Assembly: GCA_003598175.1 (NCBI GenBank) | Contig: QZKN01000050.1 | Location: forward strand, 57,334-121,333 | Origin: Candidatus Omnitrophota bacterium | GTDB taxonomy: Bacteria; Hinthialibacterota; Hinthialibacteria; Hinthialibacterales; Hinthialibacteraceae | Length of the DNA: 64,000 bases | Direction of reading: 5' to 3' | Shown here: piece by piece, positions 13,542 through 63,918 of the stretch | How positions within the stretch are numbered: position 1 is the first letter of the stretch | Layout: each line of letters starts with the position of its first letter | Notes under the pieces: model-generated | Told to the model about the DNA's origin: nothing | What the model saw: only the letters and a program-made list of their open reading frames with translations | Database searches by the model: none | Made by a program: the position numbers and the translations under genes

Positions 13542-13805
13542 TTACAACTCCATTTCCAATATTTCTTGTTTCATTTTTTCCAATGGGATTCTTTTGCCTG
13601 CCATAAATTCCTTTCGAGATTGTTGGATAATGTTCATGAATTCATGATTAGTGCTCAATGACAGGGATTCTTCATCCATTTCTTTTAAAGAGATAATCGC
13701 AGCAATGGGTTTATGGTGAGATGTCAGAATAATCATATCCTGATCAATCTCATCGGCGACTTCTGACAAGGATTGCTTGGCCGTGGAAAGTTCAATGGTT
13801 TTCAT
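13542..13805 (-). CDS. Phd/YefM family type II antitoxin
   Basis: MKTIELSTAKQSLSEVADEIDQD-MIILTSHHKPIAAIISLKEMDE fits the Phd/YefM fold. 4-nt overlap with the upstream RelE-like ORF. Confidence 0.7.
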   Translation of the reverse strand: MKTIELSTAKQSLSEVADEIDQDMIILTSHHKPIAAIISLKEMDEESLSLSTNHEFMNIIQQSRKEFMAGKRIPLEKMKQEILEMEL

Positions 13806-14101
13806 ATGGTTATCTCTTTTCCTGCAATGAATAATTTATTGCCTTCTTTCATACCGACCGCCAATATTCTCACTACATTCGGCTCTTCAATGGGAACATC
13901 GTAAAAGACACGTAGATTCTGAATTCGTAATTCCCAGGGCGCAATCGGATTGGGACGAAGGGGTTTCCTGTTTCGGGTTTCAACAAGCGGTTCATGCAAC
14001 AGTTATTTTTCGATTGATTCGAGAATTACGACTCGTTGAAAGACAGACAATTTCTTCAATTGCATTTTCACGGATTCAGCAAATTCAATGTTGTATGCCA
14101 T
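13802..14101 (-). pseudogene. RelE/ParE family toxin interrupted by an in-frame TAA
   Basis: ATG at 14101..14099 encodes MAYNIEFAESVKMQLKKLSVFQRVVILESIEK. TAA at 14005..14003 interrupts it. The same frame continues LLHEPLVETRNRKPLRPNPIAPWELRIQNLRVFYDVPIEEPNVVRILAVGMKEGNKLF. Together about 99 aa with canonical RelE/ParE N- and C-terminal motifs. Confidence 0.65.
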
Positions 14102-21435: not shown

Positions 21436-21502
21436 TTTAAATACGCATTGAACCAGTCGAATTTTGTTATTTCATAGGTAAGAACTATCCGTAATCCATG
21501 AC

Positions 21503-21580
21503 GCGCCGGCAAAAAGTCGGATTCAATTTTGGAACCGGTACATATTGTAGTATCAATCAACAATCTGCCACTATATATAT
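21503..21580. repeat. MITE/REP-like intergenic repeat, copy A (5' half only)
   Basis: atgacgcgccggcaaaaagtcggatt...attgtagtatcaatcaacaatctgccactatatat shares about 85-90% identity with 32617..32700 and 63792..63872. Confidence 0.7.
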
Positions 21581-32114: not shown

Positions 32115-32333
32115 ATGGAAACATCGTCCTTGCAACGGGCTATCGATACGGTCGAAGCCTTGTCTTGTGAAGATCAGGAGATACTGTTTGAATTGATCAA
32201 GAAACGCCGAGTTGAGCAGCGTCGAAGCGAAATTGCCTTGAATGCCAAGAAAACTTTGCTGGCTCTTCATGAGGGGCGAGCGAGAATCGGCGCGATTGAT
32301 GACCTCAAAAAAGATCTTTTAGATGAATCATGA
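32115..32333 (+). CDS. type II antitoxin (partner of YafQ/RelE-like toxin)
   Basis: 72-aa protein immediately upstream of the toxin with a 4-nt overlap. GAGGTG RBS. Confidence 0.55.
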   Translation: METSSLQRAIDTVEALSCEDQEILFELIKKRRVEQRRSEIALNAKKTLLALHEGRARIGAIDDLKKDLLDES

Positions 32334-32614
32334 GAAAACTGGTTTGGGGAAATAGTTTTCGGCGTGAACTCAAACGCCTGATACACGATCATCCACACTT
32401 GTCGAATAAAGTTTTTTCTGTTTTGGAAAAACTATTGGTTAATCCTTATAATCCCTCCTTAAAAACACATAAACTAAGCGGAAAATTGGAAGGATTGTGG
32501 TCCTGTTGGGTCGAATACGATTGCCGGATTGTGTTTACTTTTTCAAACAATCCCACGACAAATGAAGATTTAATTGTTTTGATTGATATAGGCAAGCATG
32601 AAGATGTGTATTAA
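32330..32614 (+). CDS. YafQ/RelE-family mRNA interferase toxin
   Basis: LKTHKLSGKLEGLWSCWVEYDCRIVFTF...DLIVLIDIGKHEDVY matches the YafQ/RelE C-terminal catalytic region. Confidence 0.7.
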   Translation: MRKLVWGNSFRRELKRLIHDHPHLSNKVFSVLEKLLVNPYNPSLKTHKLSGKLEGLWSCWVEYDCRIVFTFSNNPTTNEDLIVLIDIGKHEDVY

Positions 32615-32616
32615 TG

Positions 32617-32745
32617 ACGCACCGACAAAAAGTCGGATTATATATAGAATCGGCACATATTGTAGTATCAATCAACAATCTGCCACTATATATTGTGCAG
32701 ACAGGATGTCCGCACCACAATTTTCGACTTTTTTTACCAGGGCAT
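32617..32745. repeat. MITE/REP-like intergenic repeat, copy B (full length, ~129 bp)
   Basis: Imperfect terminal inverted repeats gacaaaaagtcgg / cgactttttttac. Internal hairpin acatattgt-agtatcaatca-acaatctg. Followed at 32757..32782 by a caagggcag...ctgcccttg hairpin. Confidence 0.7.
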
Positions 32746-45989: not shown

Positions 45990-46038
45990 TGGTCGGGGCG
46001 ACTGGATTCGAACCAGCGACCACCTGAACCCCATTCTT
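45990..46038 (-). other. tRNA 3'-end fragment (T-arm + acceptor 3' strand + CCA), no matching 5' half
   Basis: Reverse complement reads ...ggtcgctggttcgaatccagtcgccccgacca, giving a GGTTCGAATCC T-loop, 7-nt acceptor strand and CCA. No complementary 5' acceptor strand (cggggcg) or D-arm within 120 nt upstream. Confidence 0.55.
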
Positions 46039-46531: not shown

Positions 46532-46701
46532 TCCCTCCCGGCGGTCCCCCGGAAAATCCTTCCCGAAAAAAAACAAAACTCCCCAAAAAAAATTCGAAAA
46601 AATCTTAAATTCGTGCAAACTTAAGTTAGTATGCAGTTATTACTCATATAAATTATAATATTAAGTACTATTTGCGTAACGCAAATGATAAAGGAGTAGA
46701 C

Positions 46702-46908
46702 ATGATGGAAAATTTGTTGAATGAAAAACAGGTTGGCGAAAAAATCGGTGTTTCTCAAAGAACGCTGCAACAGTGGCGGTTGTGTGGACGCGGTCCAAAA
46801 TTTGCAAGAATTTCCGGGCGGTGCGTAAGATATTTGCGGATTCCGGCGCCGATTCACGATGGCGCGTCATTTCAGACGGGTGGCAAGGGCAAGCGAAGCA
46901 GCCCTTGA
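46702..46908 (+). CDS. AlpA/excisionase-like helix-turn-helix DNA-binding protein
   Basis: LLNEKQVGEKIGVSQRTLQQWR...GRGPKFARISGRCVRY matches the AlpA/Xis MerR-like HTH pattern. AAAGGAG RBS. A 13-bp palindrome ttgcgtaacgcaa lies about 20 bp upstream of the ATG. Confidence 0.6.
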   Translation: MMENLLNEKQVGEKIGVSQRTLQQWRLCGRGPKFARISGRCVRYLRIPAPIHDGASFQTGGKGKRSSP

Positions 46909-47149
46909 AGGATCAATAAAAATAATAGAAATTATCTCACGAGAGAATTCCGTGTTTTATATCGAAGCAGGTGACCGTCGAGAAGGTTTAATTGATAGAA
47001 AGCCCTATCCGGAATTTGAAGCCTTCGCGACTCTGAAAACCAGCGAGGAGTTCGAATCCATTCCGAACGATCGATATTGCATCGAAGGGAATTTTGGCGC
47101 GTACTTTCCGCCGATACCATTGAAGCGAGAGGGGAAACGGCGTCGATGA
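46859..47149 (+). CDS. hypothetical protein encoded largely within direct-repeat copy A
   Basis: The 96-aa ORF overlaps the AlpA-like gene by 50 nt. A degenerate, stop-containing homolog lies in repeat copy B (47688..47819). Confidence 0.3.
   Translation: MARHFRRVARASEAALEGSIKIIEIISRENSVFYIEAGDRREGLIDRKPYPEFEAFATLKTSEEFESIPNDRYCIEGNFGAYFPPIPLKREGKRRR
46875..47105. repeat. ~230-bp direct repeat, copy A (partner 47656..47880), about 70-80% identical
   Basis: gacgggtggcaagggcaagcgaagcagcccttga...atagaaattat...gagagaattccgtgtt aligns with gacggatggcatgggtaagcgaaacaacccttga...atagaaattat...gagagaattccgtgtt. Confidence 0.7.
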
Positions 47150-47212: not shown

Positions 47213-47428
47213 ATGAAATTTACAGCAATAATTGAACGCGAAGGTGAAGGATACGTATCGCTCTGTCCGGAGTTGGATATCGCAAGTCAAGGGAATAGCG
47301 TCGAACAGGCCAGAGACAATCTTCGTGAAGCTCTGGAACTTTTTTTCGAGACCGCATCACCCGAAGAAGTCAAAGAGCGACTTCATGATGAGATCTTTGT
47401 CACCCAACTTGAGGTGCTATATGGGTAA
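47213..47428 (+). CDS. hicB: HicB family antitoxin
   Basis: MKFTAIIEREGEGYVSLCPELDIASQGNSVEQARDNLREALELFFE matches HicB/UPF0150. GAGGTAA RBS. Confidence 0.8.
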   Translation: MKFTAIIEREGEGYVSLCPELDIASQGNSVEQARDNLREALELFFETASPEEVKERLHDEIFVTQLEVLYG

Positions 47429-47642
47429 ATTGCGTATCCTTTCCGGAAAAGAGGTATGCTCCATCCTAAAAAATCATGGTTTTGAGGAAATTCGCCAACG
47501 CGGGAGTCACGTTGTCATGCAGAAGAAATTATCGCAAGGCACGATAACGGTTCCTGTTCCGGACCATGATGAAATTCGAATGGGAACACTGCAATCCATA
47601 ATCCGGCAGTCCGGATTGCCTCGAAGTGAATTTGAATCATAA
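47421..47642 (+). CDS. hicA: HicA family mRNA interferase toxin
   Basis: LKNHGFEEIRQRGSHVVMQK...TVPVPDHDEIRMGTLQSIIRQSGL matches HicA/YcfA. 8-nt overlap with hicB. Confidence 0.8.
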   Translation: MGKLRILSGKEVCSILKNHGFEEIRQRGSHVVMQKKLSQGTITVPVPDHDEIRMGTLQSIIRQSGLPRSEFES

Positions 47643-47655
47643 CTCCTTGGCATCT

Positions 47656-47880
47656 GACGGATGGCATGGGTAAGCGAAACAACCCTTGAGAAATCTATGC
47701 AAATCATAGAAATTATTTTGCGAGAGAATTCCGTGTTGCCTATCAAAGCCGAAGACGGAAGAGAAGGCTTATTAGACGTCAACCCCCTATCTGGAATCCG
47801 AAACTATCGCGCCGCTGAAGAACGGTGATGAGTTCGAGCGAATTTATAATGGAACCTATTTTTCAAATCGAGTTTACCTT
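47656..47880. repeat. ~230-bp direct repeat, copy B (degenerate)
   Basis: See copy A. Its internal ORF MQIIEIILRENSVLPIKAEDGREGLLD... is terminated early relative to copy A. Confidence 0.7.
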
Positions 47881-51442: not shown

Positions 51443-51862
51443 TTATATCTTGTCGAGATTATCGTCGGTTGATAAAACTCCTTTTTGTTCCAAATAGATT
51501 TTTATCCTTTTGGAAAAATTTCTGGCGTCTCGAACCATCACTTCCGCATCCTCTTTTTCGATTTCCGATGAGACAATATAATCGGCAATATCTCTTTGAA
51601 TCTGTTCATGAGCCAATATTTCAGCCCATTCCTTCTCGATTTCACCTTTTTGAACAGGTAATTGACCAAAAAGTCGTTTTGCAGAAGCATGTCTTTTTAC
51701 ATCAATGCCATGAACCAAAAGAGCTGCTTTGGTCGCGTGCAAAACAGCATAATAGGAACGTGAAATGGAATCTTCGAATTATTCCAATGATAAAAGTGCT
51801 TCAGCGGATTTCAATGATTTTATAGAACGATTCCACTCGTCCACTATCGCCTCTTGATTCAT
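51443..51862 (-). pseudogene. HEPN domain toxin interrupted by an in-frame TAA
   Basis: ATG 51862..51860 encodes MNQEAIVDEWNRSIKSLKSAEALLSLE. TAA at 51781..51779 interrupts it. The same frame continues FEDSISRSYYAVLHATKAALLVHGIDVKRH...RDARNFSKRI. ATGA overlap with the upstream MNT gene. Confidence 0.6.
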
Positions 51863-52194
51863 GCGAATGAAATCCCTTCTTCTTGAATCCGATCACAAAA
51901 CACCGATTTACGGAGTTTAAGACGTTCCCACTCTTTGATCGTAAAAACAAAAATGGAGGGAACCACATTCGTTCCGATCGAAGGCCGAATCCCGATACTG
52001 GCGACTTGCTTTTTTAGTTTACGATCACCTTCGCGAATCAAAATTAGCAAATCCAAATCCGAATCACGTCTCGAATCCCCTCTTGCCTTTGAGCCATAAA
52101 GAAGAATATTTTCGACTAAATCCGGAAATCGATCATATAAATTCTCTCGATAGGAATTTAACCATTTTTTTTCTTCTTCATTCAACATTACCAT
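51859..52194 (-). CDS. minimal nucleotidyltransferase (MNT) family antitoxin
   Basis: LYGSKARGDSRRDSDLDLLIL carries the GS-x9-DxD nucleotidyltransferase motif. Confidence 0.75.
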   Translation of the reverse strand: MVMLNEEEKKWLNSYRENLYDRFPDLVENILLYGSKARGDSRRDSDLDLLILIREGDRKLKKQVASIGIRPSIGTNVVPSIFVFTIKEWERLKLRKSVFCDRIQEEGISFA

Positions 52195-53369: not shown

Positions 53370-53673
53370 GGATTCCTCGCGTATTTATTTGATTTTTCGA
53401 CTCGAATAAGTTGATTTATTTTACACCAAAAATTTGGGGAGTTTAGGACATCAGCCTCCTTTCCCTCCGGTCCGTGTTTTCACTCCCTACAATCCGGAAG
53501 ATGTGTGGAGCCGGTATACGAATCTCTTGTATCACGCGATTGTTGATTGAGGGAAAAATTTTGTTGGCAAGGTTCCAATTTCAATAACAACAATTCCATG
53601 ATATTATAAAGGTATATCATAAAAATCATACAGCTAATGTGGAGATTGTCGGGTGGAATGAATATCGATGGAA

Positions 53674-53706
53674 AAGGTGGGTTTCGCTTTGCTCAACCCA
53701 CCCTAC
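53674..53706. repeat. 33-bp hairpin-containing repeat aaggtgggtttcgctttgctcaacccaccctac, copy 1 (identical copy at 55755..55787)
   Basis: Exact 33/33 match. Stem ggtgggtt / aacccacc. Confidence 0.85.
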
Positions 53707-53715
53707 ATAGATAAA

Positions 53716-53883
53716 ATGAAAGTCAGTGAAATAATCAAAATTCTAAAAGAAGACGGCTGGTATCTTGATCGTACGCGGGGAAGCCATCGGCAATTCAAAC
53801 ACCCGATCAAACGGGGGAAGGTGACCGTTTCGGGTAAAGAATCGGACGATATGCCCATAGGATTGAAGTTCAGCGTTTTTTAA
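53716..53883 (+). CDS. hicA: HicA family toxin
   Basis: MKVSEIIKILKEDGWYLDRTRGSHRQFKHP is the canonical HicA N-terminus. The ORF-track start 53668 reads through the 33-bp repeat; true start is uncertain (53668 or 53716). Confidence 0.7.
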   Translation: MKVSEIIKILKEDGWYLDRTRGSHRQFKHPIKRGKVTVSGKESDDMPIGLKFSVF

Positions 53884-53912: not shown

Positions 53913-54140
53913 ATGAAATATGCGGTTGTGATTGAAAAAGCGGAAAATAATTACGGGGCCTACGTTCCCGATCTTCCCGGATGCGTGGCGACAGCCGGCG
54001 CCGTCGAGGAAACCCTTCACATGATTAAAGAAGCCATCGAATTTCACATTGAAGGGTTGAAACTGGACGGCGAGCCAATCCCCAAACCATCCGCGATCTG
54101 TGATTACGTCGAAACCGAAGACATTTCTCACATCGCCTGA
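53913..54140 (+). CDS. hicB: HicB family antitoxin
   Basis: MKYAVVIEKAENNYGAYVPDLPGCVATAGAVEETLHMIKEAIEFHIEG. TAGGAGAAA RBS. Confidence 0.85.
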   Translation: MKYAVVIEKAENNYGAYVPDLPGCVATAGAVEETLHMIKEAIEFHIEGLKLDGEPIPKPSAICDYVETEDISHIA

Positions 54141-55595: not shown

Positions 55596-55754
55596 TCCAT
55601 TCTCCTTCCTCAGGGCATCGACGGGGACGCACTCAGATTATAAGGGATTCCATGATTCTTCGTCATCGAGGTTATACGAATGTTTTGAGAGATTGTAGAT
55701 TGTTGGGTCGGGTGTATGCAATGCATCCTGTTTGTTTTTGAAATGGCAATCGTA

Positions 55755-55787
55755 AAGGTGGGTTTCGCTTTGCTCAACCCACCCTAC
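55755..55787. repeat. 33-bp hairpin-containing repeat, copy 2
   Basis: Identical to 53674..53706. Confidence 0.85.
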
Positions 55788-63762: not shown

Positions 63763-63791
63763 TATTAGCGGCGGCAACCGTCCGTATGCAA

Positions 63792-63918
63792 AAATGCGCC
63801 AGCAAAAAGTCGGATTACATTTTGGAACCGGCACAGATTGTCGTATCAATCAACAATCTGTCACTATATATTGTGCAGACAGGATGTCCGCACCACAAAT
63901 TTTGACTTTTTGCCGGGG
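63792..63918. repeat. MITE/REP-like intergenic repeat, copy C (full length)
   Basis: Terminal inverted repeats gcaaaaagtcgg / tgactttttgcc. Internal hairpin acagattgt-cgtatcaatca-acaatctgt. About 88% identical to copy B. Confidence 0.7.

Follow-up and report, generated by a model that had tools for sequence, protein, structure and literature searches.

We determined that the HEPN toxin frame of an MNT–HEPN toxin–antitoxin (TA) module, located in a 64,000-nucleotide stretch of Omnitrophota DNA (hereafter, the window), is interrupted by a single in-frame TAA codon, and that the MNT antitoxin gene preceding it is complete. We consider it probable that the locus arose through a recent single-base nonsense mutation and now consists of an intact MNT gene and a HEPN toxin pseudogene. 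Set against the intact toxin ORF of a functional TA system, the HEPN frame falls short, as its TAA occupies codon 28 of 139.

Organization of the MNT–HEPN locus

An earlier note on this DNA had described an MNT gene overlapping a HEPN frame by ATGA, and a HEPN frame divided by TAA into 27 and 111 codons; upon re-reading the sequence, we found both descriptions to be correct, and the coordinates and counts to be exact (Table 1). The MNT start codon has a GGAGA sequence about 8 nt upstream of it on the minus strand. The older GenBank and JGI gene calls describe truncated products, from which it follows that both annotations contain the same stop, and the HEPN position has no CDS in the more recent NCBI annotation. 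A search for repeats flanking the MNT–HEPN module, as a signature of mobility, found none, and a scan for promoters and terminators returned matches at or below the number expected from shuffled sequences.

Table 1. Coordinates (window positions) of the MNT–HEPN locus and of the other TA genes
Feature	Position	Strand	Remarks
MNT antitoxin gene	52194..51859	minus	ATG start, 111 aa, intact; GenBank RJP31405.1
ATGA overlap (MNT TGA stop/HEPN ATG)	51862..51859	minus	Read from the sequence; translational coupling
HEPN codons 1–27	51862..51782	minus	Encode helix alpha-1
In-frame TAA, HEPN codon 28	51781..51779	minus	Next base is T
HEPN codons 29–139 (111 codons)	51778..51446	minus	Encode helices alpha-2 to alpha-4
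Natural HEPN terminator TAA	51445..51443	minus	
Truncated ORF, 107 aa	From ATT at 51766, to 51443	minus	GenBank RJP31404.1
Truncated ORF, 99 aa	From TTG at 51742, to 51443	minus	JGI gene call
ParE/RelE toxin	14101..13802	minus	TAA at codon 33 (14005..14003)
Phd/YefM antitoxin	13542–13805	minus	Downstream of ParE/RelE, ATGA overlap, intact
HicA toxin ORF	53668..53883	plus	Premature TAA, 53881–53883
hicB	53913–54140	plus	Intact; ATG overlaps the HicA-frame TGA as ATGA (frame to 53916)
YafQ/RelE toxin gene	32330..32614		Intact
Second HicA	47424..47642		Intact
TA modules	13.5–14.1, 32.1–32.6, 47.2–47.6, 51.4–52.2, 53.7–54.1 kb		

HEPN similarity before and after the stop

The two parts of the frame had been treated in the earlier note as a single HEPN ORF, a reading that held up when the concatenated translation was compared with HEPN profiles. 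With the stop read through, the joined 139 aa match Pfam PF05168 (HEPN) with an E-value of 7e-17 and 62.1 bits (cutoff 22), residues 10–121 aligning with profile positions 5–115 of 117 and thus covering the whole domain; the part that follows the stop matches the same profile on its own with an E-value of 1.5e-12. A protein search over 5.8 billion sequences yielded 23 full-length homologues of about 133 aa that are 42–53% identical to the joined sequence, and all 23 share the Met1 start position and align uninterrupted across the stop. The window's own truncated ORF aside, this search returned nothing above about 50% identity, and a DNA pattern consisting of the exact flanks with NNN at the stop had 0 matches in JGI metagenome contigs.

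The 27-aa head also carries a family signal of its own. Scored against an HMM built from the homologues only, it reached 22.1 bits, compared to 5.9 bits for the best of 1000 shuffles; the same HMM gave 165 bits for full HEPN vs 134 bits for the tail, a contribution of about 31 bits from the head, in which the conserved residues R12, L17, A20, and L23 are all present.

The remainder of the HEPN gene is undamaged: we detected no frameshift, the coupled start is intact, and the family-invariant residues are all present, with D31, R35, H58, R63, R90, D94, and Y95 retained in the part that follows the stop. Departures from highly conserved columns (at least 90%) were confined to S57R, L69P, and D88I (3 of 34 columns), a number that lies within the range of 0–4 seen in intact homologues and is therefore uninformative with regard to further decay of HEPN.

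Predicted fold and subfamily of the HEPN protein

The AlphaFold2 model of the joined HEPN sequence (pLDDT 88.5, pTM 0.84) contains helices at residues 3–25, 30–49, 58–70, 77–95, and 103–126, and the stop falls in the loop (residues 26–29) that joins helix alpha-1 to helix alpha-2. The best structural match of this model is AF0298 (2hsb; Foldseek E-value 2.4e-5, TM 0.81/0.88), with an rmsd of 1.7 Å over 122 columns; the next matches are other HEPN proteins, including HepT toxins of type VII systems.

The Rx4-6H motif of canonical HEPN RNases, for which the earlier note had proposed to look, is not found at the canonical site, which instead reads R90-D-I-A-D94-Y95; the family consensus at this site is RxxADY, and both R90 and Tyr95 are invariant. 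A string in helix 2 that resembles the motif, R35-x6-H42, was rejected as a catalytic motif because it lies outside the catalytic site. A second histidine, His58, is at least 90% conserved and starts helix 58–70, which is inserted between helices 2 and 3. This arrangement has a described counterpart: in the AF0298-like family, the motif keeps its basic residue but not its histidine, and another conserved histidine lies N-terminally (Anantharaman et al. 2013, PMC3710099), where it may form part of an alternative active site (PMC3710099). By both sequence and fold, the HEPN protein belongs to the AF0298/UPF0332-type subfamily.

The MNT partner and conservation of the module

The MNT protein matches Pfam PF01909 with 32.6 bits (cutoff 21) and is thus a member of this family. 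The earlier note had read its catalytic motif as GS-x9-DxD; the GS and DxD elements are indeed present, but the spacer comprises 10 residues rather than 9 (G34-S35-x10-D46-L47-D48). In an alignment of 46 sequences (the window protein and 45 homologues), the motif residues are at least 93% conserved, and every MNT residue that is at least 80% conserved (G34, S35, R38, G39, S45, D46, D48, and G107) is present in the window protein.

A scan of GTDB, with one genome per species, identified 80 loci with 82 HEPN hits, distributed over many phyla, the best of which is 49% identical. An MNT gene similar to that of the window is found directly upstream, on the same strand, of 69 of the 82 homologous HEPN hits. 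On the basis of these genomic sequences, the locus is a two-gene MNT–HEPN module that is conserved across genomes. Against NCBIfam NF047752, the equivalog model for type VII MntA, the MNT protein scored 27.2 bits, below the cutoff of 60, and the alignment was limited to the motif region (residues 27–57). As the protein falls below this cutoff, we do not claim membership of the MntA equivalog family, and a mode of action like that of type VII HepT/MntA can only be presumed.

Origin of the stop codon

In the column occupied by the stop, 17 of the 23 homologues have leucine, and the others have phenylalanine, cysteine, or tryptophan. Among these four residues, only leucine, as TTA, has a codon that is one base from TAA. 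Since leucine predominates in this column and TTA is a single change away, TTA to TAA is the simplest origin of the stop; most parsimoniously, codon 28 would thus have been an ancestral TTA (Leu) that underwent a second-position T-to-A change at window position 51780.

The following sequence of events can be envisaged. By analogy with HEPN/MNT systems that have been characterised, intact HEPN would have acted as an RNase toxin that MNT neutralised, possibly by nucleotidylylating a tyrosine. A single base substitution would then have converted HEPN codon 28 to TAA, so that translation would stop once helix alpha-1 had been made, leaving the cell with no functional toxin. This knock-out appears to be evolutionarily recent, given that the coupled ATGA start is still in place and that neither the MNT gene nor the remaining HEPN frame has been damaged. 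The locus therefore probably stands at the first of the two known steps of TA decay, with its toxin gone and its antitoxin still present.

Of the 82 homologous HEPN genes, 3 also contain in-frame stops, which differ in both position and codon. One homologue (L003, 2295) has TAG at codon 15, a second (L016, 3283) has TAA in the column of the invariant Tyr95, and a third, from a Dehalococcoidia MAG (L030, 3082), has TAA in column 28, as in the window. We found no in-frame stop among the 45 full-length homologous MNTs.

Other toxin–antitoxin pairs in the window

The window encodes five TA pairs; a premature TAA is present in 3 of the 5 toxins, and all 5 antitoxins are intact. The earlier note had pointed to a second toxin with the same pattern, a RelE, and this pattern is real: the TAA of the ParE/RelE gene lies in a conserved column, where at least 90% of the aligned homologues have glutamine, which points to CAA to TAA as the lesion. 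More than 1300 ParE/RelE homologues were identified, and the best of those listed are nearly all 99 aa long, reach up to 75% identity, and align over the full joined sequence.

HicA looks like the third toxin hit by a premature TAA. Its stop lies 10 codons before the TGA that overlaps the hicB ATG, and when it is read through, the Pfam match extends from profile positions 2–48 to profile positions 2–58 of 58 and rises from 60.5 to 67 bits; the lesion is probably a change from AAA (Lys) to TAA.

TAA accounts for 51–59% of the possible nonsense changes in the damaged toxin genes (36–41% GC, compared to 50% for the window), so that finding TAA in three out of three cases is unremarkable (p ~0.16). 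That each of the three toxins carries one lesion, that all are nonsense TAA codons, and that there are no frameshifts is a little tidier than random decay predicts. In Photorhabdus laumondii, 50 of 80 predicted TA systems were validated and the remaining 30 were non-functional, mostly with truncated toxin ORFs (Belot et al. 2026, PMC13617665), and a two-step TA decay that begins with loss of the toxin has been documented in Photorhabdus (PMC13617665). As 3 damaged toxins of 5 is within this base rate (30/80), toxin erosion explains them.

Several additional observations were made on these modules and their surroundings. The window is dense in TA modules, with five in 64 kb, and the TA genes are AT-rich, mostly 36–46% GC vs 50% for the window, which is consistent with horizontal acquisition. 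The intact HicB/HicA module (47213–47642) is flanked by a 124-nt direct repeat (46872–46995 and 47653–47776; 77% identity, spacing 781 nt), which suggests that a small inserted cassette carries the module. Just upstream of the module is an HTH_17-like ORF (46672–46908). Furthermore, a 96-nt intergenic repeat occurs in three copies (21483–21578, 32598–32693, and 63776–63871), one of which directly follows the YafQ/RelE gene, and a 46-nt intergenic repeat with a GGTGGGTT...AACCCACC hairpin occurs in two copies (53661–53706 and 55742–55787), one of which is directly upstream of the truncated HicA. Both repeat families look REP- or MITE-like.

Alternative explanations for the in-frame TAA

As the sequence is the consensus of a metagenome-assembled genome, the TAA might have been introduced in error during sequencing or assembly, or might represent a minor strain allele, in which case most cells would have an intact HEPN gene; that the rest of the HEPN gene is perfectly intact would agree with this. 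We nevertheless consider it unlikely that the stop is unfixed or artefactual. The same stop is implied by RJP31404.1, by the JGI data (a 133,102-bp contig), and by the NCBI data (a 132,294-bp contig), although these may share reads; over 20,336 bases, the window is identical to NCBI JAGUZP010000123.1. Gap and ORF analysis of the window revealed no other interrupted gene among about 40 large ORFs, and random errors would be expected to confine three hits to about 1.4 kb of toxin coding sequence with a probability of only p ~1e-5. Moreover, substitution errors that create stops are rare in consensus sequence.

It is less likely still that the gene remains functional through an internal start, yielding a HEPN protein of 107 aa (from the ATT) or 99 aa (from the TTG) that serves, for example, as an RNA-binding protein or as a partner of MNT. 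GenBank and JGI annotate precisely these ORFs, and the shortened products would keep R90, D94, Y95, and H58, but both would lack helix alpha-1 and two residues of the family, the near-invariant E30 and D31, an invariant acidic residue of helix 2, and the 99-aa form would additionally lack R35, Y37, and Y38. Inspection of the sequence by eye revealed no Shine-Dalgarno sequence before either the ATT (I33) or the TTG (L41). A sigma-70-like pair, TTGAAA and TATCAT with a 16-nt spacer (10/12 matches; 51814..51787), does lie just upstream of the stop; however, this is one promoter-like match where 2.4 are expected from shuffles. Finally, the start of all 23 homologues at the Met1 position argues against initiation within the domain.

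We regard as highly improbable a functional recoding by which the toxin would stay silent pending a trigger, be it by low-level or conditional read-through, by an ochre-suppressor tRNA of host or phage, or by a ribosome hop from GAA to GAA. Such a reading is invited by three toxins in 64 kb each having exactly one in-frame TAA, with no frameshift and an otherwise conserved frame, as well as by the homologue from another phylum (L030) that has TAA in the same alignment column. The geometry of a short hop is also present, in that the codon before the stop recurs two codons later (GAA TAA TTC GAA; 51770–51787, minus strand); since the second GAA encodes the conserved Glu30, this recurrence is most likely due to chance.

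Several lines of evidence weigh against recoding. TAA is the tightest terminator with respect to release-factor recognition, and it is the commonest stop in the window, ending 24 of 40 large genes; counted from these TAA codons, the next in-frame stop lies at a median of 15 codons, and a back-up stop within 5 codons is found in only 3 of the 24. As TAA thus serves as a normal terminator without a tandem-stop signature, we rejected a reassigned genetic code and efficient constitutive suppression. The T that follows the HEPN stop creates a strong termination context (TAA-T). No Rfam element was detected around the stop, and RNA folding there is no better than that of shuffled sequences (z = -0.48). 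No tRNA gene was found in the window; a suspected tRNA-like fragment near 45,990 was supported by neither ARAGORN nor Rfam and was discarded. Furthermore, the three stops lie at unrelated places (codon 28 in HEPN, codon 33 in ParE/RelE, and, in HicA, 10 codons before the C-terminus), and those of the homologues are scattered and include TAG.

We give almost no credence to the broader proposal that the TAAs in HEPN, ParE/RelE, and HicA together form a safety catch, with the toxins made only upon UAA read-through, in which case an ochre-suppressor tRNA from a phage or mobile element, or stress-impaired termination, would lead to growth arrest or abortive infection.

Significance and comparison with known systems

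A recent nonsense mutation in a formerly intact toxin gene thus remains our preferred explanation, and the locus is properly labelled an MNT antitoxin gene with a HEPN toxin pseudogene, not a 99-aa or 107-aa "HEPN domain protein". Beyond annotation, its importance is small, as it represents an ordinary and previously described stage of TA erosion, and the locus would be of interest in its own right only if the stops were conserved or read through. With 3 of 5 toxins nonsense-hit and all antitoxins kept, the window does provide a snapshot of the first step of TA erosion in the little-studied Omnitrophota. The AF0298-type HEPN subfamily also gains a member, and for this subfamily the pairing with MNT has been solved structurally (9xbd); we found no published mechanism for it, nor a publication for PDB entries 9xbd and 9xbc.

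The closest solved relatives of both proteins are 9xbd and 9xbc (HEPN E-value 1.2e-20, MNT E-value 9.6e-5). In 9xbd, a HEPN domain protein is complexed with a nucleotidyltransferase domain protein, and these entries show that HEPN–MNT complexes are formed in the AF0298-type subfamily, albeit by full-length proteins from another organism. The HEPN chain of 9xbc has phenylalanine where that of 9xbd has the tyrosine equivalent to Y95, which hints that this tyrosine is a residue of interest and possibly a modification site.

AF0298 itself (2hsb) and the AF0298-like HEPN-T proteins resemble the window HEPN in that the arginine is kept (R90), the motif histidine is missing (D94-Y95), and a conserved histidine, H58, is located N-terminally; the family profile matches 2hsb with an E-value of 1.4e-12. 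However, the window HEPN shares only about 24% identity with AF0298, its gene carries the TAA at codon 28, and it differs from its family in having arginine in place of the near-invariant serine before His58, as well as in L69P and D88I.

The module is also similar to type VII HepT/MntA systems, as it consists of adjacent, co-oriented MNT and HEPN genes, the former encoding GS...DxD; the HEPN folds are related (Foldseek probability ~1.0, TM 0.5–0.6), and a conserved tyrosine that lies beside the arginine motif could be the modification site (PMC7641770). In contrast, the HepT toxins of type VII systems are DUF86-type proteins with a true Rx4H motif, whereas the window HEPN has R-x4-Y and is truncated.

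With regard to its state of decay, the locus most closely parallels the eroded TA loci of Photorhabdus, which likewise combine a truncated toxin ORF with an intact antitoxin gene and make up a large share of the predicted loci. These belong to other TA families and to another phylum, and while most of the truncations described there are larger, those in the window are caused by single nonsense codons.
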